From NCBI GenBank assembly GCA_002633005.1, contig NMRA01000202.1, forward strand, positions 1 through 64,000: a stretch of 64,000 nt of DNA. Reading direction: 5' to 3'. The notes beneath the pieces are model-generated. The model had not been told where the DNA came from. It did no database searches and saw only the letters and a list, made by a program, of their open reading frames with translations. Of this stretch, positions 2,718 through 64,000 are shown one piece after another (positions within the stretch are counted from its first letter, which is position 1; each line of letters starts with the position of its first letter). The translations under genes were made by a program, and so were the position numbers. The DNA comes from Phoronis australis (Eukaryota > Animalia > Phoronida).

Positions 2718-3047
2718 ATGAAGCTACAGATATTGCTGTTCATCATTATAGTAATAAACTCATCACATTGCCGACCAACTTCAAAAGATAGTCTTATCAA
2801 GACACAGGGACTCTTTACAAAACTTGGACACTTTATTTCACACCATCCCTACCATGTGAGAAATGGAGGACATGGGAGATTATTCCAGTGGTCATGCACA
2901 GCGTGTAAGTTCATAGTGGGACTGCTCCAGGATCTAGTTCGGCTCAACAAGAGCGAGACGGAGATTATTCACTTGATTCAAGAAGTGTGCGTCAAGTTGG
3001 AAATTGAAGATAGGCGGGTATGCGATGACTTATGCGTGGAGTTTAAG
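2718..3047 (+). CDS. SMPD1: SMPD1 coding exon 1 (signal peptide, start of saposin-B)
   Basis: [18 protein letters not shown]...CTACKFIV...[10 protein letters not shown], donor AAG|gtaaaa. An acceptor tttcag lies just upstream (AG 2712-2713), implying a 5'UTR intron. Confidence 0.93.
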
Positions 3048-25900: not shown

Positions 25901-27369
25901 GCATCTGTCAAGCAGTTCTCTAGTCTTGTTTTCATGCCTTTGTCAATTTTCATTTAATTTGTATTGATTACATTAATTGAGTTCAACCTTCCAATGACAG
26001 AAAAGTTTTGCTCAGCTGTTCTGTGGCTGCAACCCCTGATGGCAGAAAGTTGCATTGACTTGAGAATTATTTGTAGATGTGATGGTTTCCGAGATTTCTA
26101 AACCAAGGCCAATGTAACAACGCAATTTCCTACCTCCGGGGACAAAGGAGCTTTCTAGCCGGGACCATCCTATTGACCTGAAGAACGCCAGTGCATCCTG
26201 GCCACAATCAGGTACTTAAGCCACATAGTGATTGCATATGCATCAAGGAAGGGCACAGATGTGTCAGGAACCTGTAATTCAGATGGACACAGGTTATACA
26301 CTGGCAATTTTACCTTTACTTGTCAACAACTAAACTCAGCCAAATGCCAGTGACCAAAATTTCTAAATCTTCACTCATGTGTGGCTTAGCATCCACTTCT
26401 AACTTATATGAGTCAAGCTTACTTAAAAGTGTCAGTCGAACAAGAATCCCACATAAAAATTTAGCTTCCAAAATGTGTGCGTCTTGTCAGTTCATCTTTC
26501 GGCGGTAACAAAGATCGATGGTATCATATCGGCATGCCTTGCCAAGTATCCATGCTGAAAAAGACACACTGAAGAAATAATGAAATGGTTTTCTAATTTT
26601 TATGAACATCATAGAGTAGTACTTAAGTGCAAAAGTGGTCAAGACACTCTTATCAAGCAACTCAACTTTTATCTAAATTCCGTTAATGTGACCATGCTCA
26701 GCTTAATGCCCACTTTCTGATTTTTGAATGTCTCAATTAAGTGCCCTAGCTGTATGTTATTGTTAATGTGGATGAATAAGGTAATTATTGACTTGTAGTT
26801 AATTTATCATTCTTGGTTTTTCTTTCTTAGGTTTGGATCTTGCTGACCATGGCCGCCTGTCATTGACCATTGGCCAAGCGACTGCACGCATTGATGAACG
26901 TCATTACATCTACGCTTGCCGTCAACGACTATAGTCGCATCTCAACTACATCAAGGAATGGCACCTGCCTGTCATCAACTGTGCATAGTACAGATAAACT
27001 GAAGTTCAGGGAGTTTTTTTACACCTCCAGTGCATACTCAGAAGGGTTCACAGGCAAGTTGGGCCGAATGCTAATCGACAAAATTTTACATATCTTTGCA
27101 TTTAAATGCTCTCACTTTGCCCACATTTAATTGTTGCAATTACATGATACTTCCCAAAAAGTTTCAGTGTCTAAATGAGTGCCATTTTGCCAAAATATTT
27201 AGCTCCTAAAACATACGCATTTTGTTCACCTTTTGGTAACTCGTAATTTTATGTGAATCCATTTCGCAGTTCACGACAAACACGCGAAGTAGTTTGGCAG
27301 ATGAACAGAGAATTCCTGGTCATAACCGTTAATTCTATCATCATGTCGGGGAATTCCAGGTCATTCTAG

Positions 27370-28975
27370 TTGATCACTGTGGTGTGTACTGTGCCATCTG
27401 CGAGTCAACTGTGCATGTACCAGCGAATGTCCATACATCGAAGATTGCTGTCTAATTTCTGAGCATCGACTGTTCGTGCGTTGATGCCTCGGGTCGACTG
27501 TTCACATATCAACCATCCACTTCCCGAGGAATGTCCCTACGTTGAAGATCACTATCTACTGTCTGCATTTCGAACATTCACGTATCAAAGGAGCATCCAG
27601 ATGTGGAGGATTGGCATCGTCTGCCCACAAACTGATTGTTTACGCATCAATGTCTGTCATCGACCGTTCACATATTGGTCGTCCACTCATTGAGTTGCAT
27701 TCTCACATCAAGGATTGCCATCTACTGTTTGCGTGTCAACTATCCACCCATAGAGGAACGTTCACATATCCAGGATTGCCATCGACTGTTTACGTACCGA
27801 CTACCCACACATTGTGGAACTTCCATACATTCGAGGATTGCCCTCTACTGTTTTTATGTCGACCATCCACATATCGAGAAATGTCCATGTATCGAGGATC
27901 GTCTTCTTCTGTACACATGTCAACCGTCAACACATCGAGAAATGTCCACTCGTCAAGGATGACCATTTGCTGTCCACAAACCACCTGTTCACGCAACCAT
28001 GCCTGCCATCACCCGTTTGCATTTCGATCTTCTTCACATCAAGGAATGTCTACACATCTAGGATCTTCATCTCCCATCCTCCCACTGATCATGTTTCCGT
28101 TGATGCTTGCCCTTGATTGTATGCATATTGACTGTCCTCCCACCGGGACAGTCAATATGCATATGGTCAATGGACTGTATGTATAGTGACTGTCCTCCCA
28201 ATGGGAGGACAGTCAATATACGTACAGTGGATGGCAGGCATCAGTGGACACATGATCGGTTGGTGAATGGTAGTTGATGGTTCTACCTGTGTAAATGTTC
28301 CATGATGTAAGGAAGATTGGTATGCGGATGGCTGATGGTAGATGTTGTTGTGGGAACAGTTGGTTTGTAGCCAGTAGATGGTGAACCTTGAAGAGTGGAT
28401 GTTAATCGGTGTGAGGGCAGTTGACGTGTGTGTGGAAGATGGTGATCCTTTATGCATGGACATTTTTTGGTATGGGGAAGGTCGACATACGGATAGTAGA
28501 TGCCAATCCTTGAATGAATGGACGTTCCGCGATATGTGGGCTGTCGATATGCGAACAGTTGATGGTAATCGTGGATATGGGGATGATCCACTATGTGTGG
28601 GTGGTTGGCATACATACAGCAGATGACCATCTTTGATGTTAGGATGCTTCTGGTGTTTGGAAGATCAATATGCGAACAGTTGATGGCAGCCATTGATGTG
28701 CAAACAGTCGGTTTATGGACAGAAGATGATGACCCTCGATGTTTGGATGCAGGCCTTGATATGTGAATGATCGGTATGCGGGTGTTAGATGGTGAACTTT
28801 GATGTATGGATGGTCCTCGATGTGTGAATGGTTGACATGCGAACAGTTGATATCAGGTGTCGATGTACGAACAGTCTTTATTTGGAGATTAGATGGAAGG
28901 CTTTGAAGTATGGATATTCTTTGGTGCCTGCACAGTTGATACAGGGATTGCATAATACATAGCAAAGGGATCAGA
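27370..28975. repeat. Fold-back array of degenerate ~61-bp tandem repeats with twin hairpins at the centre
   Basis: Units like atcgaggattgccatctactgt...atcgagaaatgtccac start at about 27707, 27768, 27829, 27891 and 27952; the same units are inverted after 28230. Mirror copy at about 61797-63605. Confidence 0.85.
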
Positions 28976-29819
28976 TGAATTGATCGAGAATTCTCCAATA
29001 AGATGGCCGAATTAGCTCTAAGTGATCAGGACTTCCTGCTGATTCAGTCTCAGTACTTCTGCTGTGTACGTCCTAAATTTTAACATGTTTAATATCCACG
29101 TATTCAGAAAGATCCACACTATTGTTTGTGCATTGATGGTCGTGCACTAAGGTTGTGTGAAAAATTATGTCTCTGGCGCAAGCAAATTGACATTTCGGGT
29201 AAACATCCATCCCCTATTCTCTCAAAAATTCTGTTTCGGCGTCCATGCACGGCTCAACTTGCACGTCACCCTGATAGCTATTGTAACTCTGGTCTTGTAG
29301 TTTATTGGTGATCATTACTGAATGATGTTCCTTTCAGCATGATGCCCTGTGGTAGTGTCGTCTGCCAACTATCCATGGTAACCTGGATCGCCATCTGAAC
29401 TGTGTCATGACATGTCCTTGTTGTATGAAACGAAATCAAGGTGTTCAGGAATACCAATACCTAGTTTCAGTCATTCACTCTACCAAAGACAGGGTTGGTA
29501 TTGAAGATGGCTATATCTACCATCAGCAACCAGTGGCTTCCAGCACCAGCGCCTATGATTCACAGCTATCGATGGGCAAGGTAATACGAGTGTGTGTGTG
29601 CGGGCTTAGGATGAGTGTGACAATGAGACATGAATGTTATGATGACGACAGCGTATGTGAGTGTGTGCGTTATGTGTTTTTTTCCGTGAGGCTGGGGGAA
29701 ATGGGGATGTTGAGCAGTTGAGAGTGCACTATGAGGAGGTTGTCAATAGAGCGTCCCTGGTTTTTAGCAAAAACCAGGGAAATGAGGAGTATTGGGACTT
29801 GTTAACCTGATAAAGCGCT

Positions 29820-32800
29820 CCCTGTGAAAAGGGTAAAACTTTCCTGTCGAGATTTTCACGACTGGATGTCAATCACGTTAAATGGGTAAAGTCTTTCTCG
29901 TGAAAAGGGTAAAACTTTTCTATCAATTTTTTATGACTGAATGTCAATCAAGTGAAATGAGTAAAGTGGTCCTCGATGAAAGGGTAAACTTTTGTGTTCA
30001 GTGTTTCTCGACAGAGGATATCATTTGAGTGGATATTACCATCGTTGCTACTGAATTGAAGAATTAGCGAGACATTAAATTCAAACTTGGTAACTGAGTA
30101 AAGTCTTGCCTGGTGAGTGGTTAATGAATTAGTAATGTGACAAATTAATGATGAAATTGTATGAAAGTGACGAATCCGAATCCTTAAAATGCTGTGAGTA
30201 TTTGAAATCGATGAGTGTGACGAAGATAAATGCGAAAAATAAACGAACTCAAAGAAATGTGAAAATTGATGAGTCATTAAAGTACGATTCAGTGACAAAA
30301 CCTGTAAAACAGACCAGTATAATCAAATGAGACTATGAAGTATGAAAAAGTTAATGGACTAATGGAATGGGAGATTTTAATGAATGTGTGAATGAAATGT
30401 GAGTCAGTTAAACGCGACACAAATACACCTGCAGTGGTCTAAATTTAACGCGATGGATGAATCTGAAAAATGCTTTGAGTATAATAAGCCGTGAAAAATA
30501 AATGAACTGAAGAAATACCATGGCATATTCAGACTTGCTAAATGGGTAAAATCTGGCCTGTTGCAACGCTAAAAGTAAGTTCTGTGCTATGAATATGGAG
30601 ATTTTTTTCTGTCAAAATCCAGTATCAAGGAGATGTAAGTAAAGAAGGTGAGCTGATGTAAATTCTCTGAATGAAAGTGGTTAATGCATTGATCAGTAAC
30701 AAGTGACAAATAAAATGTTACAACTTATTGAAAATGATGAGTGTTATCAAGCTAAATGTGAAAAACAAATGATCCCAAAAATGTGAAAATTAATGAACCA
30801 ATCAAATGCAAATTAATGACAAAAACCTGTGAAACAGTAAAATTCAAACGAAACTATAAAATGTGAAAAATGCTACAAACCCTATAGGGTGTGACGAAGC
30901 AGAACGAACCTGTAAAATTTGAGGGTCACTCATTAAGACACCTGTATGCAGGCAAAAATAATTGAAAAAAGCATGAACTTACACCTAAACAAACTGGTTG
31001 AGTTTGACAAATAAAATCCGAGAAATTATTCAATTCTGACCACAATGTGTGAAAATTTATGAAGGAATAAAATATGCATCGGTCAAATGTGACTCAAAGA
31101 AACCTGTGGTGATCCAAATTAAACATAAATGATGAATTCATAAAATAACATAATCAAGTCAAGAGGTTGAGAGTGATAGAAAGAATGTGAAAAATAAATG
31201 AACTAGGGAAGTTCTAGAACGCTGAATGGTAAGTCTGGGCTTTTGCGAGATTAAAATTTATTTGTGCCACCAATATGGCAAATTTTTCTGTCATAATTCC
31301 CTTTCGAGGAGATGAAATCAAATAAAATGGGTTGATGGCAATTCTCTAAGTGCGACTGGTTAATGAATTGTCGAATTAATGGATGCGTAAAGTGATAAAC
31401 TAATAAAATGTTAATAAGCACTGAAGACTTTGCAAAAGGTGCCAGCGAAAAATGAGCAGAAAGAGACAACGAAAGTACAAAGAGCGAGTGAGTCCATTAA
31501 CTGCTAAACAATCATGAAACAGGGGAAGTGTGATGAATCAAGAATTCTGTAAAATGTAATCAGTTTATGAATTATCATGGGACAAATTAATAAATTCACA
31601 TAATAACTAATAAAATGGCAAAATGTGATAGACATAATAAAGCCACGAAAAAATAAAAGAGATGAAATAATGATAAACCAGAAAAGCGAGAGAATGAAGG
31701 TGTAAAATGTAATGATTAAATGAGATCTTTTAATTGCTGCAAAAAACTGACACCAAGAACAGGTAAATAAATGGAGCCTTGACTTGAAAAAATGGTGAAA
31801 TTGGGCAAAACAAACGAATCCTTAACATGCTAATGACAATGTGAAGTCAATGTCAGTGAGACGAGGCTTAACGCAAAAAAATGTGAAAGTTAGTAAACTA
31901 ATCAAGACAAGTTAACAGCAAAATCTTTTAAAATAGTATAAATCAAACGTAACCATGAAATGTGAAAAATTAATTGTGATAAAATGGGAGACTTTAATAA
32001 TGGGTAAAATCCAACAAACAAACAACAAAAGCCCTATGAGCTGTGAGAAAACAAAATGTGTGGGGAAATAAAATTAACTTATAAAATGCAATAAACGAAG
32101 CATAAATGTACACATATGCAAGGGAAGTGTCACTTAACCTGTAAAATATGCCAAACTAATGAACCTGCCAAAAGCATCGAGTCACTGTTTGCTAGCCCCT
32201 TAACTCATTTAAGAAGCTGTTAAAAAATGAAAAAGTTATGTAGTTACAGGCAACAATTAAATATACCAGTGAAATGGGCTGAATTAATGAATGCTACACC
32301 AAGTGTAACAGTTAAAAATAACATGAATTAGTCCTGTAAAATGCTACATCTAAACAAACTGGTTGAGTGTGACAAATTAATTATGGACTAATGTAAAAAT
32401 TGGATGTACTAATAAAATGATAAAATTTACAAAATCAATGAAATGGGTCGAATCAATGAATGCTACATCAATTCTAAGAGTTGAAAAAACATGAACTAGT
32501 CCTGTAAAATGCCTCATCTAAACAAACTGGTTGAGTGTGACGGATCAAGTGAGAGAAATAATTGAGCCCCACGTATTGGGAAACTTTATGAATGAATAAA
32601 ATACGAATAACTACTAAAAAGTAAAATGCAACATAAAGAAACCTGTAGTACGTGTTCCAACCGATGAATTCGAAAAATGGTATGACTAGTAAGTGAAGCC
32701 GTTAAGTGAGACGAATCAAAATATGAACAGAGGAAATACCAGGGCATATTCATAATCACTCCCTGGGTTAAAGTCTTGCCTGTTTCAAGGTTGAAGAGAA

Positions 32801-33330
32801 ATTCTTTGCCACAAGGGAATTCGAGGAGATGAAACGAAACAAAGTTGGCTGATGACAGTTCTCTAAAAGCATCTGGTTTATGAATATGTAATACATAACG
32901 TAAAGTGCAGGAACGAGATGAACCAATGAAATGAGAAAAATAAAACCATATGGTCACTGAAGAATTTGCAAAGTGTGTGTAAAATAATGACTGGCAAAAA
33001 GTAAAGAAGAATGGATAAGTGAATTGAGTAACTGCTAAAACAGCCATGTAACGGTGAAGATGGGTGTAATGAATTAGAAATTCTGTAAAAAGTTATCAAT
33101 TATTGAAATACTAGTGTATGACTAGTCAATGAACCTGCCAAAGTAAAACGGCAAAATGTTATGTAATAAACACTACAATAGTGTGACAGATAAAATTGAA
33201 GTTTCAAAATGTGGTAAGCGAAGCATAAAGATACCTGTATGTTGGTAAAAACCAACTAACATCAGAAAAATGTGCCAAACTAATGACACGTCAAATGCAA
33301 GAACGAATTACTGAGTAAAACAAGTCCTGT
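29820..33330 (+). repeat. Highly degenerate, A-rich, strand-skewed satellite-like tract
   Basis: Recurrent cctgtaaaat, aaaatgtga and taatgaa motifs; local direct repeats (29825-29870 vs 29901-29948; 32270-32375 vs 32441-32541). Confidence 0.6.
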
Positions 33331-34779
33331 AGCACGACTATGATAGACAAGAAAATGTGCAGTGAGGAATTATTTAATAAAGAGCCGTCATCTAGCCAGC
33401 TATATTCTGGAGTAGAGGAAAAAAGTAACTTGATGAGAGAAAAGTTATGCGTATGGCAAATGGTACTTGATGAGATCTATTGTCGACCTGTCAAATTTAG
33501 GTAACTGGTATCGAAGGAAAGCAGGAAATACAGCGCAGGAAATCAATCAAATGAGGACTCCGTGGAAAATCTCGAATAACTCAAGAACAGAAAGTCTTAA
33601 CAAAAAGTGACTGCAGAACTGCAGATAGCAGTTGATGTGATCCAGCCACACCTCAAATTTCAAAAAATGCCTATGGTTCCGCAAAGCAGCAAACTGAGAA
33701 ATGGATGCACTGGTGCCATCATGCGACACTAAAACAATACCACAGAAACCTTGAGTGTGAAGTTTATTATGATCTTGGTGAAAAATGTGATCTGCAGCAT
33801 GAGTACCGTATCATACCAATATTGCTGCAGAACGGAACTCTGCAAAGTGACATCGAAAAATGGCCATCACAGGCCTTCTCGCATCCAGTGCCAACCGAAA
33901 ACAATTTAGCTAGAGCTATTAACAAGTTGCATGTCAACTGTATAAAAATGGGACCTGTAGCACCTAAGGATAACAGCAAATTTAACTGAGCAACGGAATA
34001 CGCAGTGTTTGACAAAATTAATATCATATTATTTTCTGAAAGATCCGTTGAGGGGCGCTGAGATACAGCACTCCATATATTAAACAGCTGTCTCAAAAAT
34101 CTTGGGTAACATGAGTTCAGTCAGTTGTTACAAAAATTGGATGACATATATGTATGATAATCAGCTCTTGAAACATCGAGTATCCACAAACCAAGTCTCA
34201 GAAATCCCCCCATTGACTGTCAGTGGAGCTGTGCCTCCACAAATCAAACTTGAAATGTCGATGATAAAATTGCGTTTAATTAAATGTTGAGTGGATATGC
34301 AAACACAGATAAAAAGGACGAGTCCATATGCTGATCATATCATTTGCACAACCATTTTCAGCAGTTCAGAAGCAGAAAAAATGAAACTTACTGAAACTGA
34401 GTAATCTACTGACTTAACCGGACAAAACTACGCATAAAGCATGTACTGCCGAATGTCTTCTCAAATGAGTCGCTCAATTCATGACTAGTTGCAGCGATCA
34501 GTCTCACCCTCGTATACATCGCCACATGCCCAAGAAGTGGTACCGAAAATCACTAGGCAAGAACATTGCAAAAATCAAACCATGAACTGAGGAGCAAACA
34601 CCCGTGGTATTTGAGTGCACCTAAATGCAAAAGCTGTCTGGAAACCGATTTTCTGGTGACTCAAAACTTGTGGTAATTTTGAGCTAGCAATCGACATTGT
34701 CAACACAGCACTCAATCAGCAACTGAGATTTCCACTGACTCCAGTGTATAAGTTCAGTTGGTAACAAATTATGGACTAC

Positions 34780-35460
34780 AATTATGGAGAAACTTCCATG
34801 CATCTCAGGATCTGTGTCTTGCATCCAGAATCTGCGTTTTCACTCATTGGTATTTGCCATTTACTATTTGCATACAGACCACTGGCACATCGAGGGACGT
34901 CCATGCATGCAGAATCACAGTCTACTGTCCATATAATGATGGTTCAAAGATGGGTGCATTCAAGATTCCATCAACTGTTCGCATGTTCAACTCCTTATCA
35001 TGGAAGGGCCACCTATCGAGGATTAGCATCAACTGCCTGCAGCTGTTGGATCCATGTATTGAGGAATATCGACCGTCCATGCCTTGAGGAATGCCCACGC
35101 TTTGGGATCGTCATGTGATGTTTGCAAAACTGTGTGGATATCGGTCAGTCACTCGTTTAAGAACATCCATGCATTGAGGATAGCTATGTACCGTCCACCT
35201 TCTAAACATACGTTCATTGACGCCTGCCATTGGTTGTATGCATATTGACTGTCTAGGTGGGAAGATGGTCCATATGCATCCAGCTGATATATTGTACACA
35301 TAATGACAGTCCAGGTGGGTGGATAGTTGCTATGGGTACAGTTGAGGTCAAGCGGCAATGGACGCATGTTTTGTAGGTAGAAAGTACATGGCAGTCCTCA
35401 ATATGTAGATGTTCCGAGTTTGTGAAAGATCGATATCTATGAGGTTGATCCTAAGCATCG
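34780..35460. repeat. Diverged paralogue of the fold-back core, with twin hairpins at 35238-35279 and 35293-35340
   Basis: Shares atgcatattgactgtc and the atcgagga/catcaactgttcgcat motifs with 27400-28230; further copies at about 49320-49990 and 52125-52790. Confidence 0.75.
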
Positions 35461-39900: not shown

Positions 39901-40096
39901 TACAAGGAAATGAAGATGTGCTTGGTTTAAAATGTGTGAAATGTAAGGGGTGGTGATTGAACACCAGGGAAGCAGTTGAATAACAGGCTTAATGATATTA
40001 ACATCTCACTAATAGACTTTAAATACAGCCCAAGGGATCATGTTTCCTGGCCAACACAAAGGCGTGACTTGCCATTGGTTATCAGAATGCTCTTAA
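36901..40096 (+). repeat. Diverged ~1.8-kb tandem duplication (36901-38340 vs 38688-40096), homology resuming at about 41745-42260
   Basis: Both units begin ttcaatgctcctcattcacttgt and share ttttatgctgcatcaagtggtggttcc, ttggatgccaaaaacattatgtctggagccgtgaaat and cctggccaacacaaagg. Confidence 0.85.
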
Positions 40097-44948: not shown

Positions 44949-44949
44949 N

Positions 44950-52100: not shown

Positions 52101-54737
52101 ACTGTGCATCGATGCCTAGGATCAACCTCATAGATATCGATCTTTCACAAACTCGGAACATCTACATATTGAGGACTGCCATGTACTTTCTACCTACAAA
52201 ACATGCGTCCATTGCCGCTTGACCTCAACTGTACCCATAGCAACTATCCACCCACCTGGACTGTCATTATGTGTACAATATATCAGCTGGATGCATATGG
52301 ACCATCTACCCACCTAGACAGTCAATATGCATACAACCAATGGCAGGCGTCAATGAACGTATGGTTAGAAGGTGGACGGTACATAGCTATCCTCAATGCA
52401 TGGATGTTCTTAAACGAGAGACTGACCGATATCCACACAATTTTGCAAACATCACATGATGATCCCAAAGCGTGGGCATTCCTCAAGGCATGGACAGTCG
52501 ATATTCCTCAATACATGGATCCAACAGCTGCAGGCAGTTGATGCTAATCCTCGATACGTGGCCCTTCCATGATAAAGAGTTGAACATGCGAACAGTTGAT
52601 GGAATCTTGAATGCACCCATCCTTGAACCATCATTATATGGACAGTAGACTGTGATTCTACACGCATGGAAGTCCCTTGATGTGGCAGTGGTGTGTATGC
52701 AAATAGTAAATGGCAAAGACCAATGAGTGAAAACGCAGATTATGGATGGAAGACACAGATCCTGAGATGCATGGAAGTTTCTCCATAATTTGTTACCAAC
52801 TGAACTTATACACTGGAGTCAGTGGAAATCTCAGTTGCTGAATGAGTGCTGTGTTGACAATGTCGATTGCTAGCTCAAAAATACCACGAGTTTTGAGTCA
52901 CCAGAAAATCGGTTTCCAGACAGCTTTTGCATCAGGTGCACTCGAATACGACGGGTGTTTGCTCCTCAGTTCATGGTTTGATTTTTGCAATGTTCTTGCC
53001 TTGTGATTTTCGTTACCACATCTTGGGCATGTGGCGATGTATACGAGGGTGAGACTGATCGCTGCAACTAGTCATGAATTGAGCGACTCATTTGAGAAGA
53101 CATTTGGCAGTACATGCTTTATGCGTAGTTTTGTCCACGGTTAAGTCAGTAGATTACTCAGTTTCAGTCAGTTTCATTTTTTCTGCTTCTGAACTGCTGA
53201 AAATGGTTGTGCAAATGATATGATCGGCATATAGACTCGTCCTTTTCATCTGGGTTTGCATATCCACTCAACATTTAATTACATTATCATCGACATTTCA
53301 AGTCTGATTTGTGGAGGCACAGCTCCACTGACAGTCAATGGAGGGATTTCTGAGACTTGGTTTGTGGATACTCGATGTTTCAAGAGCTGATTATCATACA
53401 CAGATGCCATCCAATTTTTGTAACAACTGACTGATCTCGTGTTACTCAAGATTTTTGGGACAGCTGTTTAATATATGGAGTGCTGTATCTCAGCGCCCCT
53501 CAACGGATCTTTCAGAAAATAATTAATATGATGATGACATTAATTTTGTCAAGCACTGCATATCCCGTTGCTCAATTAAATTTGCTGTTATCCTTAGGTG
53601 CTACAGGTCCCATTTTTATACAGTTGACATGCAACTTGTTAATAGCTCTAGCTAAATTGTTTTCGGTTGGCACTGGATGCGAGATGACCTGTGATGGCCA
53701 TTTTTCGATATGTCACTTTGCCGAGTTCTGTTCTGCAGCAATATTGGTATGATACTCATGCTCCAGATCACATTTTTCACCAACACCATAATAAACTTCA
53801 CACTCAAGGTTTCTGTAATAGCTCAAGGCTGTTTTATTGTTGCATGATGACGCCAGAGCATCCATTTCTCAGTTTGCTGCTTTGCGGAACCATGGGCATT
53901 TTTTGAAATTTGAGGTGTGGCTGGATAACATCAACTGTTATCTGCAGTTCTAGTCATTTTTTGTTCTTGAGTTATTCGAGATTTTCCACAGAGTCATCAT
54001 TTGATTGATTTCGTGTGCTGTATTTCCTGCTTTCCTTCGATACCAGTTACCTAAATTTGACAGGTGGACAATAGATCTCAAGTACCATTTGCCATACGCA
54101 TAACTTTTCTCTCATCAAGTTACTTTTCTCCTCTACTCCAGAATATAGCTGGCAAGATGACGGCTCTTTATTAAATAATTCCACACTGCACATTTTCTTG
54201 TCTATCATAGTCGTGCTACAGGACTTGTTTTACTCAGTAATTCGTTCTTGCATTTGACGTGTCATTAGTTTGGCACATTTTTCTGATGTTAGTTCAGGTT
54301 TTTACCAACATACAGGTATCTTTATGCATCGCTAACCACATTTTGAAACTTCAGTTTTATCTGTCACACTATTGTAGTGTTCATTACATAACATTTTGCC
54401 GTTTTACTTCGCCAGGTTCATTGACAAGTCATATACCAGTATTTCAATAATTGATAACTTTTTACAGAATTTCTAGTTCATCACACCCATCTTCATCGTT
54501 ACATGGCTGTTTTAGCAGTTACTCAATTCACTTATCCATTCTTCTTTACTTTTTGCCAGTCATTTTACACACTTTGCAAATTCTTCAGTGACCATATGGT
54601 TTTATTTTTCTCATTTCATTGGTTCATCTCGTTTCTGCACTTTACGTTATGTATTACATATTCATAAACCAGATGCTTTTAGAGAACTGTCATCAGCCAA
54701 CTTTGTTTCGTTTCATCTCCTTGAATTCCCTTGTGGC
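49114..54737 (+). repeat. 2.8-kb direct duplication (49114-51917 and 51919-54737) joined at N51918
   Basis: Both copies start aatgatcattaatgcctgg and reach gaattcccttgtggc; each has private indels. Confidence 0.9.
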
Positions 54738-54856
54738 AAAGAATTTCTCTTCAACCTTGAAACAGGCAAGACTTTAACCCAGGGAGTGATTATGAATTTG
54801 CCCTGGTATTTCCTCTGTTCATATTTTGATTCGTCTCACTTAACGGCTTCACTTAC

Positions 54857-55221
54857 TTTTTTTTTTTTTTTCACTGTGATATATATTTATTGAAGGATAC
54901 ACAGAACATACAAAGAAATAATAACAAACCCAGAAACCGCGAAGCATTATATCTGGGTTGTAAACAATTCATAAATGAAACTTATATACATAGAGATATA
55001 TACAATTAAGTAGTATCTAAAATAAGTATTCCAATACTTAGACATGCTATTACAGATATATAAAAACAAAAATATTTACAGATTCATGTAGGGAAATCAG
55101 ATGCAACAATATTGATAAACGGTATATAAAAATTTGCTAACGTTGCTTAGGAGGAATTCGTTAAGAACAAAGTCAAGGTTAGGACTACCATTCAGTAATA
55201 ATGTAACTCTAGTAGGGATAT
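54857..55221 (-). mobile_element. 3' end of a non-LTR retrotransposon (CR1/L2-like LINE), cut by N55222
   Basis: Poly(A) seen as T15 at 54857-54871, AATAAA at 54886-54891 on the minus strand, and a minus-strand frame IPTRVTLLLNGSPNLDFVLNEFLLSNVSKFL...stop (55097-55099) that resembles CR1-group ORF2 C-termini. Absent from the left arm (about 32685). Confidence 0.7.
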
Positions 55222-56516
55222 NTTTCCTCTGTTCATATTTTGATTCGTCTCACTTAACGGCTTCACTTACTAGTCATACCATTTTTCGAATTCATCGGTT
55301 GGAACACGTACTACAGGTTTCTTTATGTTGCATTTTACTTTTTAGTAGTTATTCGTATTTTATTCATTCATAAAGTTTCCCAATACGTGGGGCTCAATTA
55401 TTTCTCTCACTTGATCCGTCACACTCAACCAGTTTGTTTAGATGAGGCATTTTACAGGACTAGTTCATGTTTTTTCAAGTCTTAGAATTGATGTAGCATT
55501 CATTGATTCAACCCATTTCATTGATTTTGTAAATTTTCTCATTTTATTAGTACATCCAATTTTTACATTAGTCCATAATTAATTTGTCACACTCAACCAG
55601 TTTGTTTAGATGTAGCATTTTACAGGACTAATTCCTGTTATTTTTAACTGTTACACTTGATGTAGCATTCATTAATTCAGCCCATTTCACTGGTATATTC
55701 AATTGTTGCCTTTAACTAAATAACTTTTTTTAACAGCTTCTTAAATGAGTTAAGGGGCTAGCAAACAGTGACTCGATGCTTTTGGCAGGTTCATTAGTTT
55801 GGCATATTTTACAGGTTAAGTGACACTTCCCTTGCATATGTGTACATTTATGCTTCGTTTATTGCATTTCATAAGTTAATTTTATTTCCCCACACATTTT
55901 GTTTTCTCACAGCTCATAGGGCTTTTGTTGTTTGTTTGTTGGATTTTACCCATTATTAAAGTCTCCCATTTTATCACAATTAATTTTTCACATTTCATGG
56001 TTACGCTTGATTTATACTATTTTAAAAGATTTTGCTGTTAACTTGTCTTCATTAGTTTACTAACTTTCACATTTTTTGGCTCATTTATTTTTTGCGTTAA
56101 GCCTCGTCTCACTGACATTGACTTCACATTGTCATTAGCATGTTAAGGATTCGTTTGTTTTGCCCAATTTCACCATTTTTTCAAGCCAAGGCTCCATTTA
56201 TTTACCTGTTTTTGGTGTCAGTTTTTTGCAGCAATTAAAAGATCTTACTTAATCATTACATTTTACACCTTCATTCTCTCGCTTTGCTGGTTTATCATTA
56301 TTTCATCTCTTTTATTTTTTCGTGGCTTCATTATGTCTGTCACATTTTGCCGTCTTATTAGTTATTATGTGAATTTATTAATTTGTCCCATGATAATTCA
56401 TAAACTGATTACATTTTACAGAATTCTTGATTCATCACACTTCCTGTTTCATGATTGTTTAGCAGTTAATGGACTCACTCGTTCTTTGTACTTTCGTTGT
56501 CTCTTTTTGCTCATTT

Positions 56517-56683
56517 TTCGCTGGCACCTTTTGCAAAGTCTTCAGTGCTGATTATCATTTTATTAGTTTATCTAAACGTTGCACTTTACGCACCCATTTA
56601 TTCGCTGGCACCTTTTGCAAAGTCTTCAGTGCTGATTATCATTTTATTAGTTTATCTAATCGTTGCACTTTACGCACCCATTA
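56517..56683 (+). repeat. 84-bp tandem duplication specific to the right arm
   Basis: ttcgctggcaccttttgcaaag...ctttacgcacccatt occurs twice; one shorter copy in the left arm (about 31378-31448). Confidence 0.85.
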
Positions 56684-57556
56684 ATTCGACAATTCATTAA
56701 CCAGTTGCACTTAGAGAATTGCCATCAACCCATTTTATTTGATTTCATCTCCTCGAAAGTGAATTATGACAGAAAAATTTGCCATATTGGTGGCACAAAT
56801 AAATTTTAATCTCGCAAAAGCCCAGACTTTAACCATTCAGCGTTCTGGAACTTCCCTAGTTCATTTATTTTTCACATTCTTTCTATCACTCTCAACCTCT
56901 TGACTTGGTTATGTTATTTTATGAATTCATCATTTGTGTTTAATTTGGATCACCACAGGTTTCTCTGAGTCACATTTGACCGATGCATATTTTATTCCTT
57001 CATAAATTTTCACGTTTTGTGGTCAGGATTGAATAATTTCTCGGATTTTATTTGTCAAACTCAACCATTTGTTTAGGTGTAAGTTCATGCTTTTTTCAAT
57101 TGTTTTTACCTGCATACAGGTGTCTTAATATGTGACCCTCAAATTTTACAGGTTCGTTCTGCTTCGTCACACCCTATAGGGATTGTGGCATTTTTCACAT
57201 TCATAAAAGTCTCCAATTCCATTAGTCTATTAATTTTTCACATTTTGTAGTTTCGTTTGAATTTTACTGTTTTACAGGTTTTTGTCATTAAAGGCGAAGA
57301 CAACCTTTTTCCATGTCATTTTGAGCTAAAATAAGGTTGGTTGGTTATCCTAGACATATTTTTCACTTAATTACAGCTTTTCGTAATTTTATTAATTATT
57401 CGTCCGCTTTTCCGGAAGTGACGTTTTAGGAGGCAAGCGCTTCCCGCCAATTTCTTTTCACATAGTCTGACTGTGAGAGCTGCCGAGTCAGTCATTGTTC
57501 TACCTCGGTTGTGTTAAGTTCCGTCGTCGTTCGCTTTCATTTACTAGTCAGTCAAC

Positions 57557-58623
57557 ATGCCACACTGTTGCTGCGTACCGGGATGTAGTAATTATCGGCT
57601 CACGCGCGCTTTGGGAGTGCCTTTGCATCGCTTTCCGATGGATGACACACTTCGCCGTACTTGGCTCGTTCGTGTGAAGAACGCAGCGTTACCCGTCCAC
57701 GCAACGTACAAAGCAGTGGAGAATTACCGTGTGTGTGGCAAGCACTTTCTGCCGTCCGATTACGAAAGGGATTTGTACGCTGAACTGATGAAGGTCCCCG
57801 CGAAACAACGCTTGAAGAAGGATGCCATTCCGTCTGTGTTGATTCCCGGCAGTGCCCCGTCGCCACCCCCGAGAAGTGCGTTTTTGAAGCGAGAAGCCTC
57901 GCGAGCTGTGGCCAGTACAGTGACTGGAGCCAGTGGAGGCACTTCATCTACTGTCACCCGTGCCTCCGAACGTACCCCAGAGCGTGCAATTCCTGGAACC
58001 AGTAGTGATTCGCCCTGTGCTGTTTTCTCCAGCCCAGAGCCTCTAAGCAGCCCTGCAGCGATATTGAGTAGTGGGAGTGATTACAGGCCCAGTTCGACAC
58101 CCAGTGAAGAGGACAGTTCGTCGTCCAGTGAACAGATCGGTGAGCCAAACTTTGATAAGTTTATTGTGGACTTGTCTAAAGTGTTGGAGCTATTTAGAAG
58201 GTGCCAGGTGTGTGGCGAGGGAGTCACGACACAATGTAAATAGTTTGGGTGCTCAGGTCACCATCCAGTGGGAGTGTGTCACGGGACACTCTGGCAAGTG
58301 GGACAGTTGTTCCTCTGTCCGTGGTATGCCGGAGGTCAACTTAACCATGTCCAGTGGTGTGCTCTTCACTGGAAACACGTTTCAGTCGGTGAAGACAATG
58401 ATGGACTTTGGAAAAGTCAAGTTTTTTTTCGAAAACAACATTCAACAACATTCAGAATTCCTATTTAATACCAGTTGTCAATGACGCATACATGTCACAA
58501 CATCTCGAGTTGGTGGCGGAATTCATGGAGGAGAACTTGTCTGACTCACCAGGGCGGTCCGCCAAGTATACCACATACACTCTAATGGAGGAAGAGACCA
58601 AAAAGATAATTGATGTGGAACTC
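57557..58623 (+). pseudogene. Kolobok THAP-domain transposase, frameshifted and truncated
   Basis: Complete THAP (MPHCCCVPGC...HRFP...W...RVCGKHF...LKKDAIPS), then CQVC...C..GH...W, then DSPGRSAKYTTYTLME...KIIDVEL. Frameshifts at about 58235 and 58425; the DGR expected before DSPG is missing; the sequence stops at the deletion junction. Confidence 0.88.
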
Positions 58624-58868
58624 GGAACAGCACAAGCATTCAATTGAGGTAGGCATAACAACGCACACAGTGCATTTGCACCAAGATGTGTCACCACGTC
58701 TGTCTTCAGTAGCCGCCTCGTTTCTCTCAACAGCGTCTGTGCCTGTGTGTACTCTGCCTCGTTGTACTCGGGCTCAAACATGTACCCACCCACTGAATGT
58801 CCGTGAAAAAATTCCTCGTCACCACTGCTGTGAACAAGGTCTCCGTCACTCACACTACTGTCACTGTG
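58615..58868 (-). pseudogene. KolX-like accessory protein N-terminal part with a P2X7-ballast-like Cys cluster
   Basis: GYMFEPEYNEAEY, then after a frameshift RRGDTSWCKCTVCVVMPTSIECLCCSE; the start codon probably lies in the N gap. Confidence 0.8.
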
Positions 58869-59735
58869 NNNNNNNNNNNNNNNNNNNNNNNNNNNNNNNN
58901 NNNNNNNNNNNNNNNNNNNNNNNNNNNNNNNNNNNNNNNNNNNNNNNNNNNNNNNNNNNNNNNNNNNNNNNNNNNNNNNNNNNNNNNNNNNNNNNNNNNN
59001 NNNNNNNNNNNNNNNNNNNNNNNNNNNNNNNNNNNNNNNNNNNNNNNNNNNNNNNNNNNNNNNNNNNNNNNNNNNNNNNNNNNNNNNNNNNNNNNNNNNN
59101 NNNNNNNNNNNNNNNNNNNNNNNNNNNNNNNNNNNNNNNNNNNNNNNNNNNNNNNNNNNNNNNNNNNNNNNNNNNNNNNNNNNNNNNNNNNNNNNNNNNN
59201 NNNNNNNNNNNNNNNNNNNNNNNNNNNNNNNNNNNNNNNNNNNNNNNNNNNNNNNNNNNNNNNNNNNNNNNNNNNNNNNNNNNNNNNNNNNNNNNNNNNN
59301 NNNNNNNNNNNNNNNNNNNNNNNNNNNNNNNNNNNNNNNNNNNNNNNNNNNNNNNNNNNNNNNNNNNNNNNNNNNNNNNNNNNNNNNNNNNNNNNNNNNN
59401 NNNNNNNNNNNNNNNNNNNNNNNNNNNNNNNNNNNNNNNNNNNNNNNNNNNNNNNNNNNNNNNNNNNNNNNNNNNNNNNNNNNNNNNNNNNNNNNNNNNN
59501 NNNNNNNNNNNNNNNNNNNNNNNNNNNNNNNNNNNNNNNNNNNNNNNNNNNNNNNNNNNNNNNNNNNNNNNNNNNNNNNNNNNNNNNNNNNNNNNNNNNN
59601 NNNNNNNNNNNNNNNNNNNNNNNNNNNNNNNNNNNNNNNNNNNNNNNNNNNNNNNNNNNNNNNNNNNNNNNNNNNNNNNNNNNNNNNNNNNNNNNNNNNN
59701 NNNNNNNNNNNNNNNNNNNNNNNNNNNNNNNNNNN
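58869..59735. other. Assembly gap (867 N) inside the Kolobok element
   Basis: Run of N. Confidence 1.
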
Positions 59736-62700
59736 GAAGCGCTTGCCTCCTAAAACGTCACTTCCGGAAAAGCGGACGAGTAATTAATAAAATTACGAAA
59801 AGCTGTAATTAAGTGAAAAATATGTCTAGGATAACCAACCAACCTTATTTTAGCTCAAAATGACATGGAAAAAGGTTGCCTTCGCCTTTAATTCGCATTT
59901 GATTGGTTCATTAATTTTCACATTTTTGGTATCATTTGTTTTTCACATTTAGCTTGATAACACTCATCATTTTCAATACGTTGTAACATTTTATGGATTT
60001 GTTTTTCTCATACCATTTCACCATTTATTTGTTTTCTTGTTACTAATAAATGCATTAACCACTTTCATTCAGAGAATTGACATCAGCTCACCTTCTTTAC
60101 TTACAACTCCTTGATACTAGATTTTGACAGAAAAAAATCTCCATATTCATAGCAAAGAACTTACTTTTAGCGTTGCAACAGGCCAGATTTTACCCATTTA
60201 GCAAGTCTGAATATGCCCTGGTATTTCTTCAGTTCATTTATTTTTCACGGCTTATTATACTCAAAGCATTCTTCAGATTCATCCGTCGCGTTCAGTTTGG
60301 ACCATTGCAGGTGTAGTTGTGTCGCGTTTAACTGACTCACATTTCATTCACACATTCATTAAAAACTCCCATTCCATTAGTCCATTAACTTTTTCATACT
60401 TCATAGTCTCATTTGATTATACTGGTCTGTTTTACAGGTTCTGTCACTGAATCGTACTTTAATGACTCATTAATTTTCACATTTCTTTGAGTTTGTTTAT
60501 TTTTCGCATTTATCTTCGTCACACTCATTGATTTCAAATACAGCATTTTAAGGATTCGGATTCGTCACTTTCATACAATTTCATCATTAGTTTGTCACAT
60601 TACTAATTCATTAACCAGTCACTAGGCAAGACTTTACTCAGTTACCAAGTTTGAATTTAATGTCTCGCTGATTCTTCAATTCAGTAGCAACGATGGTAAT
60701 ATGCACTCAAATGATATCCTCTGTCGAGAAACACTGAACACAAAAGTTTACCCTTTCATCGAGGACCACTTTACTCATTTCACTTGATTGACATTCAGTC
60801 ATAAAAAATTGATAGAAAAGTTTTACCCTTTTTACGAGAAAGACTTTACCCATTTAACTTGATTGACATCCAGTCGTGAAAATCTCGACAGGAAGGTTTT
60901 ACCCTTTTCACAGGGAGCGCTTTATCTGGTTAACAAGTCCCAATACTCCTAATTTCCCTGGTTTTTACTAAAAACCAGGGACGCTCTATTGACAACCTCC
61001 TCATAGTGCACTCTCTACTGCTCAACATCCCCATTTCCCCCAGCCTCACGAAAAAAAACACATAACGCACACACTCACATACGCTGTCGTCATCATAACA
61101 TTCATGTCTCATTGTCACACTCATCCTAAGCAAGCCCACACACACTCGTATTACCTTGCCCATCGATAGCTGTGAATCATAGGCGCTGGTGCTGGAAGCC
61201 ACTGGTTGCTGATGGTAGATATAGCCATCTTCAATACCAACCCTGTCTTTGGTAGAGTGAATGACTGAAACTAGGTATAGATATTCCTGAACACCTTGAC
61301 TTCTTTTTATACAACAAGGACATGTCATGACACAGTTCAAGGACTTGAAACTCACTAACAGGTGCAGGTCAGCAGATGGCGATCCAGGTTACCATGGATG
61401 GTTGGCAGACGACACGTAACCACAGGGCATCATGCTGAAAGGAACACCATTCAGTAATGATCACCAATAAACTACAAGACCAGAGTTACAATCGCTATCA
61501 GGGTGACGTGCAAGTTGAGCCGTGCATGGACGCCAAAACAGAATTTTTGAGAGAATAGGGGATGGATGTTTACCTGAAATGTCAATTTGCTTGCGCCAGA
61601 GACATAATTTTTCACACAACCTTAGTGCACGACCATCAATGCACAAACAATAGTGTGGATATTTCTGAATACGTGGATGTTAAACATGTTAAAATTTAGG
61701 ACTTACACAGCAGAAGTATTGAGACTGAATCAGCAGGAAGTCCTGATCACTTAGAGCTAATTCGGCCATCTTATTGGTGAATTCTCGATCAATTCATCTG
61801 ATCCCTTTGCTGTGTATTATGCAATCCCTAGATCAACTGTGCAGGCACCAAAGAATGTCCATACTTCAAAGCCTTCCATCCAATCTCCAAATAAAGACTG
61901 TTCGTACATCGACACCTGATATCAACTGTTCGCATGTCAACCATTCACACATCGAGGAGCATCCATACATCAAAGTTCACCATCTAACACCTGCATACCG
62001 ATCATTCACATATCAAGGCCTGCATCCACACATCGAGGGTCGTCATCTTCTGTCCATAAACCAACTGTTGGCACATCAATGGCTGCCGTCAACTGTTCGC
62101 ATATCAATCTTCCAAACACCAGAAGCATCCTAACATCAAAGATGGTCATCTGCTGTATGTATGCCAACCACCCACACATAGTGGATCATCCCCATATCCA
62201 CGATTACAATCAACTGTTCACATATCGACAGCCCACATATTGCGGAACGTCCATTCATTCAAGGATTGGCGTCTACTATCCGTATGTCGACCTTCCCCAT
62301 ACCGAAAAATGTCCATGCATCGAGGATCACCATCTTCCACACACACGTCAACTGCCCTCACACCGATTAACATCCACTCATCAAGGTTCACCATCTACTG
62401 GCTACAAACCAACTGTTCCCACAACAACATCTACCATCAGCCATCCGCATACCAATCTTCCTTACATCATGGAACATTTACACAGGTAGAACCATCAACT
62501 ACCATTCACCAACCGATCATGTGTCCACTGATGCCTGCCATCCACTGTACGTATATTGACTGTCCTCCCATTGGGAGGACAGTCACTATACGTACAGTCC
62601 ATTGACCATATGCATATTGACTGTCCCGGTGGGAGGACAGTCAATATGCATACGATCAAGGGCAAGCATCAATGGAAACATGATCAGTGGGAGGATGGGA

Positions 62701-64000
62701 GATGAAGATCCTAGATGTGTGAACATTCCTTGATGTGAGGAAGATCGAAATGCAAACGGGTGATGGCAGGCATGGTTGCGTGAACAGGTGGTCTGTGGAC
62801 AGCAAATGGTCATCCTTGACGAGTGGACATTTCTCGATGTGTTGACGGTTGACATGTGTACAGAAGAAGACGATCCTCGATACATGGACATTTCTCGATA
62901 TGTGGATGGTCGACATAAAAACAGTAGAGGACAATCCTCGAATGTATGGAAGTTCCACAATGTGTGGGTAGTCGGTACGTAAACAGTCGATGGCAATCCT
63001 GGATATGTGAACGTTCCCCTATGGGTGGATAGTTGACACGCAAACAGTAGATGACAATCCTTGATGTGAGAATGCAACTCAGTGTATGGACGACCGATAT
63101 GCGAACGGTCGATGACAGACATTGATGCGTAAACAATCAGTTTGTGGGCAGACGATGCCAATCCTCCACATCTGGATGCNCGTAAACAGTCGATGGCAAT
63201 CCTGGATATGTGAACGTTCCTCTATGGGTGGATAGTTGACACGCAAACAGTAGATGGCAATCCTTGATGTGAGAATGCAACTCAATGAGTGGACGACCAA
63301 TATGTGAACGGTCGATGACAGACATTGATGCGTAAACAATCAGTTTGTGGGCAGACGATGCCAATCCTCCACATCTGGATGCTCCTTTGATACGTGAATG
63401 TTCGAAATGCAGACAGTAGATAGTGATCTTCAACGTGTGGATATTCCTCGGAAAGTGGATGGTTGATATACGAACAGTTGACCCAAGGCACCAACGCACG
63501 GACAGTCGATGCTCAGAAATTAGACAGCAATCTTCGAAGTATGGACATTCGCTGGTACATGCACAGTTGACTCGCAGATGGCACAGTACACACCACAGTG
63601 ATCAACTAGAACGACCTGGAATTCCCCGACATGATGATAGAATTAACGGTTATGACCAGGAATTCTCTGTTCATCTGCCAAACTACTTCGCGTGTTTGTC
63701 GTGAACTGCGAAATGGATTCACATAAAATTACGAGTTGCCGAAAGGTGAACAAAATGCGTATGTTTTAGGAGCTAAATATTTTGGCAACATGGCACTCAT
63801 TTAGACACTGAAACTTTTTGGAAAGTCATGTAATTGCAACAATTAAATGTGGGCAAAGTGAGAGCATTTAAATGCAAAGATATGTAAAATTTTGTCGATT
63901 AGCATTCGGCCCAACTTGCCTGTGAACCCTTCTGAGTATGCACTGGAGGTGTAAAAAAACTCCCTGAACTTCAGTTTATCTGTACTATGCACAGTTGATG

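Follow-up and report, generated by a model that had tools for sequence, protein, structure and literature searches.

Features of the Locus

The window, i.e., the whole 64,000-nt stretch of DNA that was analysed, holds a transcribed non-coding gene which includes a long imperfect hairpin, hp1, and whose 3' part recurs as an inverted copy further along. The features discussed below are:

23531..23673, + strand: upstream exon, 5' boundary tentatively placed at an AG, donor GT at 23674
23674..24405, + strand: GT..AG intron, spliced out in family RNA
24406..27207, + strand: further expressed exon-like segments (from RNA/DNA depth, joints and loose ends), shared with paralogues; exon map approximate
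26973..38687, + strand: left arm of the giant inverted repeat, corresponding to the 3' portion of the hairpin-RNA gene
27275..29072, + strand: hp1, imperfect rod of ~800 bp with mostly 1x1 and 2x2 loops, built of degenerate 61/43-nt repeats
28113..28228, + strand: Y-shaped tip of hp1, formed by two near-perfect hairpins of 26-27 bp whose loops have 6 nt and 3 nt (z -10.1, -9.3)
29990..33500, + strand: A-rich spacer 1 (42% A), weakly transcribed, + strand only
34833..35494, + strand: hp2, an old, decayed paralogue of hp1
36200..40096, + strand: A-rich spacer 2, holding an old direct duplicate (36899-38323 / 38685-40096)
40097..41700, strand not assigned: decayed Kolobok-like element of very high genomic copy number, 3' end approximate
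42305..44948, + strand: 26-bp CCAAT minisatellite with 101 units and a higher-order unit of 182 bp; its real length is doubtful
44950..45427, + strand: redundant 478-bp copy of 45895-46371 directly after N44949 (2 differences, 1 gap)
46065..64000, - strand: right arm, inverted copy, 2-3.8% diverged, with single-N joins, redundant overlaps and two insertions; runs out of the window
49114..54740, - strand: two versions (49114-51917 and 51919-54740) of left-arm 32805-35651, joined at N51918
54856..55221, - strand: poly(A)-tailed, LINE-like 3' fragment
57292..59887, + strand: Kolobok0 transposon with TTAA duplication, THAP-transposase remnant (+) and KolX-like remnant (-)
61700..63500, - strand: right-arm copy of hp1, interrupted at N63180 by an overlap of 202 bp; the - strand gives the better fold

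The first-pass annotation had described about 37 kb with no intact gene, which is correct for protein genes but overlooked the transcribed non-coding one. Pfam searches of 11 + 3 ORF pieces matched only THAP, SapB_1 and, weakly, P2RX7_C, and the ORFs of the hp1 stem had no Pfam match. No Rfam model matched at gathering score across the 64 kb, and its miRNA models cannot span an insert such as the hp1 extension. As a separate observation, SMPD1 exons have animal matches at 65-82% across many phyla.

Transcription and Splicing

Three stranded RNA-seq runs of unspecified tissue, with 18-19% of each read, were mapped to the part of the window left of the array; strand was set by the GT..AG junction on first-mate-minus reads. 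The junction 23673->24406 was carried by 3 + 7 family reads (10 in total), and of the + strand splice signals previously noted at 23-27 kb the splice 23674-24405 is seen in RNA. The spliced upstream exons are common to the paralogues, and the exon chain presumably continues from exon 23531-23673 as far as hp1.

Family RNA of the left arm is A-rich, lies on the + strand and runs toward the CCAAT array; divergent transcription from a central promoter was not seen. In left-arm bins 29638-34306 antisense (first-mate-plus) depth was 0-0.14 in the three runs, against sense depth of up to 2.4, with some antisense reads at 34974-36307 (0.06-1.85). These figures disfavour both models put forward in the first-pass annotation, one with transcripts leaving the array in both directions and one with read-through that reaches the right arm and gives multi-kb dsRNA, because either would produce antisense RNA in the left arm. 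The U-rich precursors that it had expected do not agree with a sense RNA that is rich in A, and read-through pairing is further at odds with the absence of G:U bias in the giant arms. Its proposal of a dsRNA locus survives in altered form: dsRNA would come from the spliced + strand transcript, with the local hp1 and not the giant arms as its source.

Structure and Sequence Constraint of hp1

The predicted fold of hp1 comprises 696 pairs in a continuous extended stem with an inter-arm length of ~1.7 kb, and is more stable on the + strand than on the - strand (MFE -1047 vs -820 kcal/mol); the right-arm copy keeps this preference for the sense strand (-829 vs -656). Near the base, the largest loop is 4x5 and lies ~40 bp up the stem, at 27323/29022; the stem is at its least regular at the base itself. 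Predicted fold, family RNA on the folding strand and lack of coding capacity together describe a long intramolecular imperfect duplex, although folding in vivo is inferred from the model. The nested fold-backs reported earlier were confirmed, at 27.3-29.0 and about 35.1-35.4 kb.

When the two arms of hp1 were aligned blind to G:U pairing, the 802 positions comprised 577 Watson-Crick pairs, 109 G:U, 31 A:C and 85 others (+ strand; P 2e-11), so that 225 positions (28%) are non-Watson-Crick, with G:U spread over both arms (53 and 56). Strand-biased mutation as the source of the G:U excess was ruled out by the transcribed flank, where the corresponding counts were 28 vs 25 among 89 polarised changes. 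Only three single-base gaps accompany the 225 non-Watson-Crick positions, compared to 37/255 in non-hairpin arms (P 2e-7) and 31/155 in the old direct duplicate (P 6e-9); similarly, the left and right copies of hp1 differ by 47 substitutions and no indels (P 0.005). The longest Watson-Crick run is 11, against 17.6 after permutation (P 0.005), and no uninterrupted pairing exceeds 23. A Watson-Crick pair is restored in other copies at 15 of the 19 hp1 sites listed, and 27676/28667 is a compensatory pair. Changes between the left and right copies were not enriched for states that keep the pair (20 vs a null of 19.2, P 0.44), and the mismatches of hp1 have no 21-22-nt period. Judged by sequence, hp1 carries strong signs of selection for pairing. 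Its paralogue hp2 (406/644 identical) retains the Y tip and has no G:U bias (6:6).

Three weak matches of Rfam miRNA models at the hp1 tip (E 0.12-0.72) were taken as chance. A viroid-like or HDV-like rod was rejected, there being no ribozyme or viroid-like family in Rfam and no coding match. Searching viral contigs with the tip pattern gave no match, and the single metagenome match, L001, is a plain near-perfect palindrome without a Y tip which we judged unrelated. No parent or target gene for hp1 was found in the window or in Pfam.

Copy Number, Expression and Editing

DNA depth is 136-220 across hp1 and 3.5-11 in the intron bins nearby, which suggests that the genome has at least ten copies of the hp1 family. 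Many copies are at least 82% alike along the stem, and the loose ends of RNA reads at 29072 mark where expressed copies cease to match, at the 3' base of the stem. Expression is modest (RNA depth 8-44 in ~18% of one run) with both arms well covered. Only ~5% of the mapped RNA reads are at least 95% alike to the copy in the window (48/971 and 52/960). This copy may therefore be in decay or have low expression, and the evidence bears mostly on its paralogues.

Over 23450-30400, taken as a whole and not localised to hp1, RNA carried A>G at 211 and 214 places and T>C at 109 and 113, whereas DNA contigs, from different individuals than the RNA, had A>G at 85 and T>C at 96. The RNA/DNA ratio was 2.5 for A>G and 0.9-1.65 for the other 11 classes (P 4e-7, 1e-6). 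This strand-specific excess, found in RNA over DNA as in ADAR-edited long dsRNA, is likely to reflect A-to-I editing, presumably by ADAR.

The Giant Inverted Repeat

The earlier claim of arms of at least 11.7 kb holds, as 26973-38687 has an inverted copy, with 1.9-3.8% arm-vs-arm substitutions depending on the segment. Of the right arm, however, ~3.5 kb consists of overlapping sequence given twice at single-N joins (44949, 51918, 55222 and 63180), and the adjacency of the two arms depends on the single join N44949. The versions 49114-51917 and 51919-54740 differ by 3.35% and, on sequence grounds, are likely alleles; such probably allelic pieces, abutting at single Ns, make the right arm too long, and assembly errors thus partly enlarge the repeat. 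A pure two-allele mis-join is disfavoured because left 32805-35651 exists in three versions with 40-52 private changes apiece and because DNA depth is raised (12-32 at 30-36 kb vs 4-16 upstream). A pooled sample or a wrong orientation may underlie the apparent inverted repeat.

The repeat had been thought to be organised around the CCAAT/TATA array. The array is present (101 CCAAT boxes and 15 TATAAAA, with every unit in the same orientation), but an organising role is not borne out, and it lies within an asymmetric loop that also includes non-mirrored gene sequence (38688-42304). Its 182-bp unit recurs ~14 times letter for letter, which may be an assembler loop. Nor does the strand skew flip at the array, as had been claimed: it stays left-arm-like across the entire array and flips at N44949, a flip that any inverted copy would give. 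The giant arms are without G:U bias (15:15, 26:31, 33:24 and 6:10). In our reading, the giant inverted repeat arose when part of one gene of a multi-copy non-coding family was recently duplicated in inverted orientation. It is ordinary in itself, and neither its arms nor the transposons nor the CCAAT array would have a part in the proposed mechanism.

Transposons and Insertions

Two Kolobok derivatives with opposed gene halves had been reported, and both were recovered. The element at 57292-59887 has 157-bp TIRs, RR..YY termini, an empty site in the left arm and Pfam matches to THAP (E 2e-15) and, on the opposite strand, P2RX7_C/KolX-like sequence (E 5e-4); its DDE core had no Pfam match. TTAA duplication, RR..YY ends and transposase plus KolX-like remnants are those of Kolobok0 transposons (PMC9587614), from which it differs in being a broken, gapped passenger in one arm. 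The decayed element from 40097 matches THAP (E 0.008) and, weakly, P2RX7_C (E 0.14), and a search for its second TIR found none. The poly(A)-tailed insertion at 54856-55221, formerly called a LINE 3' end, is real, being present in one right-arm piece and absent from the others, but its LINE identity found no database match and its translation was uninformative.

Discussion

We favour, tentatively and at somewhat less than even chances, the reading that hp1 represents a family of genes for long hairpin RNAs, with a mode of action like that of the hpRNAs of Drosophila. RNA of the hp1 type likely feeds an animal small-RNA pathway, in our analysis, because the ~800-bp hairpin shows signs of selection and of probable A-to-I editing. 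A Pol II transcript would start upstream of 23.5 kb and be spliced, and the folded rod would then be cut by an RNase III enzyme (Dicer) into regulatory small RNAs. The G:U pairs and symmetric mismatches would hold the register of the helix while interrupting the palindrome in the DNA and every long stretch of perfect duplex. Dicer would gain access through the tight-loop tip, or at the base once this had been cropped, and its small-RNA products would be mutually related because the stem consists of degenerate 61/43-nt repeats. That the intact hairpin RNA is readily sequenced could mean that dicing is inefficient. The lack of a 21-22-nt period in the mismatches, of pair-keeping enrichment between the left and right copies, of G:U bias in hp2 and of a parent or target gene in the sequence examined also weighs against this reading.

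Alternatively, hp1 could be a stable, undiced dsRNA that serves as ADAR substrate and holds back Dicer or dsRNA sensors as a sink or brake, in the manner of rncs-1, the branched ends of which resist Dicer. The editing signature, the coverage of both arms in ordinary RNA-seq, the branched tip and the lack of any perfect duplex above 11 bp or uninterrupted pairing above 23 are in keeping with such a decoy, but a sink needs structure and not sequence, yet the copies are at least 82% alike along the stem, and expression is modest; we regard it as unlikely. Marginally less likely still is a giant pri-miRNA from which Drosha and Dicer-1 would free one duplex at the hp1 base, the 1.7-kb extension being paired solely for processing. 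It would require no siRNA machinery, the left and right copies are identical at 27238-27362 and 28995-29052 (a weak, post hoc observation), the 4x5 loop lies ~40 bp above the base, and the 5' basal arm near 27292 appears to resemble, with one mismatch, the miR-96/182/263 seed family. Against this, the base is irregular, with no obvious prominent asymmetric bulge near it, and Rfam offers only the weak tip matches and no miRNA at gathering score. Invertebrate miRNA hairpins with >1 kb between the arms do exist and need continuous pairing, but their extensions are reported to diverge between species (PMC12553114), whereas the whole hp1 extension is common to many copies.

A selfish or neutral repeat family, either a fold-back-like element or segmental duplications, would make the pairing a relic or an aid to its own spread, and the editing incidental. 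Fold-back elements do have long inverted arms made of repeats, and the family is multi-copy, built of tandem units and surrounded by transposons, with private pair-breaking changes in the window copy. Decay of a DNA fold-back, however, gives equal G:U and A:C together with indels, whereas hp1 has 109:31 and almost no indels; sharp termini or a target duplication were not seen, the paralogues share spliced upstream exons, and neither a ribozyme or viroid-like Rfam family nor a coding match was found. This makes the selfish reading improbable. We consider very improbable the model in which U-rich piRNA precursors of both arms start divergently at the CCAAT array, or in which the giant arms pair within a read-through transcript: the boxes in the loop, the transposon fragments and the few antisense reads at 34974-36307 fit it, but antisense RNA is ~0 over 29.6-34.3 kb in three runs, all units share one orientation in an array whose length may be an artefact, the giant arms lack G:U bias and their adjacency is one N join. 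A germline-only piRNA precursor at the locus is possible.

Returning to the hpRNA-like reading, the hpRNAs of Drosophila undergo splicing and polyadenylation and often exist in several or tandem copies (PMC10317233), and hp1 likewise probably belongs to a spliced, Pol II-type primary transcript, with one GT..AG junction in 10 family reads and no poly(A) end seen. With hp-CG18854/esi-1, hp-CG4068/esi-2, the hp-tHMG cluster and the hp-pncr009 family it shares a spliced non-coding transcript and a long imperfect fold-back, as well as tandem and dispersed copies in flux of copy number (PMC10317233; PMC11840564). The stem of hp1 differs in being about twice the ~400 bp of esi-1, internally repetitive and Y-tipped, no parent gene was found, and nothing in the data points to an insect host; the Drosophila genes are known by their siRNAs and Dicer-2, hp1 by predicted fold and long RNA. 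Kilobase-scale continuous pairing is shared with lepidopteran mir-12, Daphnia mir-375 and dipteran mir-989 (PMC12553114), but hp1 has no identified conserved basal miRNA or obvious prominent proximal bulge and its copies share the whole extension. While rncs-1 is a single, shorter, near-perfect duplex, hp1 is a multi-copy family with 28% non-Watson-Crick positions. Both are long non-coding RNAs in which an intramolecular duplex goes together with A-to-G changes, as in the editing-enriched regions of C. elegans, where rncs-1 is an edited dsRNA regulated by starvation and infection (PMC4408787).

For trochozoans, a loss of DICER2 and in most cases of siAGO has been reported (PMC11114477), which would count against the hpRNA-like reading if the host is one. 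It is conceivable, though rather doubtful, that a lineage reported to have lost Dicer-2 and siRNA Argonautes keeps and amplifies 1.7-kb, G:U-tuned, ADAR-edited hairpin-RNA genes, from which a single Dicer would make related small RNAs (or one record-length miRNA), as an independent hpRNA pathway outside insects. If the host is a trochozoan, the family would make it possible to check, with one small-RNA library, whether endogenous siRNA is absent from the clade as reported. Most of what has been characterised of dedicated long hairpin-RNA genes comes from Drosophila, and surveys of giant miRNA hairpins from arthropods, and a search of mostly open-access literature returned no report of such a hairpin family; if the preferred reading is true, another animal deliberately invests in long self dsRNA, as ~800-bp hairpins that are purged of indels, G:U-swapped and edited. 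In engineered plant hpRNA transgenes G:U pairs break the DNA inverted repeat while the RNA hairpin is kept (PMC9263138). Those constructs are synthetic; hp1 would be a natural, animal counterpart of this design in plant RNAi, with G:U on both arms.

A predicted long hairpin of a transcribed family, with biased pairing

The main value of this locus is a selected family of long-hairpin RNAs, likely edited, lying inside a giant repeat. The hairpin in the window, hp1 (27275-29072, + strand), is predicted to form a rod with about 700-760 base pairs. This rod contains 79 loops of 1x1 and 13 of 2x2, the largest loop being 4x5, and ends in two near-perfect 26-27-bp hairpins (the Y tip, 28113-28228). 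G:U-blind alignment of its arms gave 577 Watson-Crick, 109 G:U, 31 A:C and 85 other pairings across 802 positions (P 2e-11); a DNA palindrome in decay is expected to show G:U and A:C equally. The two were about balanced in the arms of the giant repeat (15:15, 26:31, 33:24 and 6:10), and strand-biased local mutation as the source of the excess was ruled out by a transcribed-flank control (28 vs 25 among 89 polarised changes). The hp1 arms contain only three one-base gaps for 225 non-Watson-Crick positions. As controls, arm segments outside the hairpins have 37 gaps for 255 substitutions, and an old direct duplicate has 31 for 155; the left and right copies of hp1 differ by 47 substitutions and 0 gaps (P 0.005). 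The longest Watson-Crick run is 11, vs 17.6 in permutations (P 0.005), and the stem is composed of degenerate 61- and 43-nt units. Three results point the other way: changes between the left and right copies favoured pair-keeping states no more than expected (20 vs 19.2, P 0.44), no Dicer-length period was found among the hp1 mismatches, and G:U bias is absent from hp2 (34833-35494), an old decayed paralogue that is 63% identical to hp1 and shares its Y tip. A short motif recurs at 25847, 26856, 26968, 28002 and 35223, in the upstream exons and both hairpins, which suggests a common origin for exons and stem.

Three stranded RNA-seq runs under the same species label were mapped to 22301-42300 (18-19% of each run), and two of them, with two further read/contig sets, to 23450-30400. 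First-mate-minus reads (3 + 7) span a junction that joins the exon end at 23673 to 24406, with GT..AG intron ends in the window sequence; this orientation therefore marks + strand RNA. Depth on hp1 is 8-44 sense and 0-1.7 antisense; over 29638-34306 it is 0-2.4 and 0-0.14, with some antisense RNA at 34974-36307 and within high-copy repeats. Only 48/971 and 52/960 mapped RNA reads are at least 95% alike to the window copy; the bulk derives from other family copies, and contigs of an independent run (presumed RNA) match exon and hairpin pieces at <90%. A 67-nt segment, 24827-24893, is single in the window and tandem in expressed paralogues (joint 24893 to 24827, 42 and 35 reads). Immediately upstream of the first exon seen lie very high-copy repeats (22300-23400, DNA depth 1,500-3,000) that include a reversed CCAAT box (22644); this stretch may be the hairpin gene's promoter, derived from a transposon.

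Family size and RNA editing

DNA depth was 136-220 on hp1 vs 3.5-11 in nearby intron bins, and each listed variant was carried by 4-10 DNA contigs, from which the family would comprise roughly ten or more loci. RNA reads part from the reference where the stem has its 3' base (29072) and DNA joints come back in at 27208, so the shared unit coincides with the stem. Among the variants listed (40 + 40 rows, with 1,196 and 997 further rows beyond the listing), other copies restore a Watson-Crick pair at 15/19 stem sites, so the window copy carries private damage; two of the remaining sites make one compensatory pair and two break a pair.

Within 23450-30400 the RNA showed A>G at 211 and 214 places vs T>C at 109 and 113, and the DNA contigs 85 vs 96; the RNA/DNA ratio was 2.5 for A>G vs 0.9-1.65 for the other 11 classes (P 4e-7 and 1e-6), as counts pooled over the region, with DNA from a different individual than the RNA. 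The same trend held across 22301-42300 in the three runs (A>G/T>C 158/105, 138/106 and 121/91 vs DNA 117/111). Such an excess, here on the + strand, is the mark expected of ADAR on dsRNA, as described in part of PMC4408787, and we consider it probable that the hairpin folds in vivo and is edited.

Structure of the giant inverted repeat

Arms and single-N joins of the repeat:
26973-38687 (+), left arm (self-BLAST of the window)
46065-64000 (-), right arm, continuing past the window end (self-BLAST of the window)
N44949, overlap of 478 bp, 0.4% divergent
N51918, overlap of about 2.8 kb, 3.35% divergent
N55222, overlap of about 45 bp
N63180, overlap of 202 bp, 3.5% divergent

The giant inverted repeat reported by the first-pass annotation is an ordinary duplication, partly mis-assembled, with passenger transposons. 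Both arms are present and differ by 1.9-3.8% substitutions by segment, but overlapping duplicates flank each of the four single Ns in the right half, and these would be allelic contigs joined by the scaffolder (about 3.5 kb in total). Divergence cannot separate arms from alleles, since it equals the likely allelic level and, over 202 bp, one right-arm piece does not differ from the left arm at all. The annotation's own refuting case, alleles mis-joined at N44949, is disfavoured, and the duplication is likely, with good confidence, to be real: left 32805-35651 exists in three versions with 40-52 private changes apiece (2,764 gap-free columns), which need two loci in a diploid, and DNA contig depth, although not equal to copy number, is 12-32 at 30-36 kb vs 4-16 at 23.6-26.3 kb. 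That the copies are adjacent and inverted is less certain, somewhat favoured, because it rests on the N44949 join. A fold-back/MITE-like element occupies the inner end of both arms (45428-46130, and 38624-38687, truncated) and is a likely breakpoint of the duplication.

The array, a 26-bp CCAAT minisatellite (42305-44948), has 101 units with every CCAAT on the + strand; beyond the first few, a 7-unit 182-bp block recurs letter for letter until N44949, and this exact repetition may be an assembler loop. The strand skew described as flipping at the array does flip, but AT skew stays at +0.14 to +0.21 across the whole array and falls at 45 kb, as expected from an inverted copy.

Transposons in the repeat:
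57292-59887, Kolobok0 element (TTAA duplication, 157-bp TIRs, THAP E 2e-15)
from 40097, decayed Kolobok-like relative, very high copy
54856-55221, poly(A)-tailed piece, in one right-arm version only

The two Kolobok derivatives noted earlier were recovered. The first, recognised by diagnostic features in part of PMC9587614, carries a P2RX7_C/KolX-like remnant (E 5e-4) on the strand opposite its THAP remnant, and the corresponding site is empty in the left arm.

Proposed function

The repeat, the RNA strand, one splice, the pairing biases, the A>G excess and the many copies are what the data show. We favour, at slightly under an even chance, a small-RNA precursor resembling Drosophila hpRNAs, which passages of PMC10317233 describe as spliced and often tandem or multi-copy. 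The Y tip would offer a closed small-loop end to Dicer-2/Loqs-PD-like processing (a closed end with a small loop is preferred according to part of PMC11840564), and G:U substitution would spare the DNA the trouble of a palindrome yet leave the RNA duplex intact, a design also used in engineered plant hairpins (PMC9263138). The hp1 family is a candidate member of the hpRNA family; no published report of such a hairpin family was found in the literature searched.

An undiced decoy like rncs-1 is unlikely, and a giant pri-miRNA (cf. part of PMC12553114) rather unlikely; a selfish or neutral repeat is quite improbable. Least probable are piRNA precursors driven by the array, given the near absence of antisense RNA on the left arm over 29638-34306: outward transcription from the array and read-through into the right arm, both earlier proposals, predict such RNA there, and neither was seen in the three runs (sample tissue unspecified). 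Passages of PMC11114477 and PMC8915122 report trochozoans to be without DICER2 and mostly without siAGO; were the host a trochozoan, the odds of the hpRNA reading would fall and its interest rise.

Neighbouring gene

2703-15400 (+), multi-exon acid sphingomyelinase (SMPD1) gene, SapB_1 match in exon 1

Its catalytic exons match SMPD1 of many animal phyla at 65-82%, and the gene identifies the window as animal DNA. A near-perfect ~140-bp palindrome on a metagenome contig (L001:250-560) was judged unrelated to hp1. Small MITE-like DNA palindromes lie at 501-810, with no G:U bias (0:4), and 12441-12652. SMPD1 intron 1 holds an ORF with a THAP-like start (3208-3594; no Pfam match at E 0.1), and a 36-38-bp tandem repeat lies inside an SMPD1 intron at 8548-8805.
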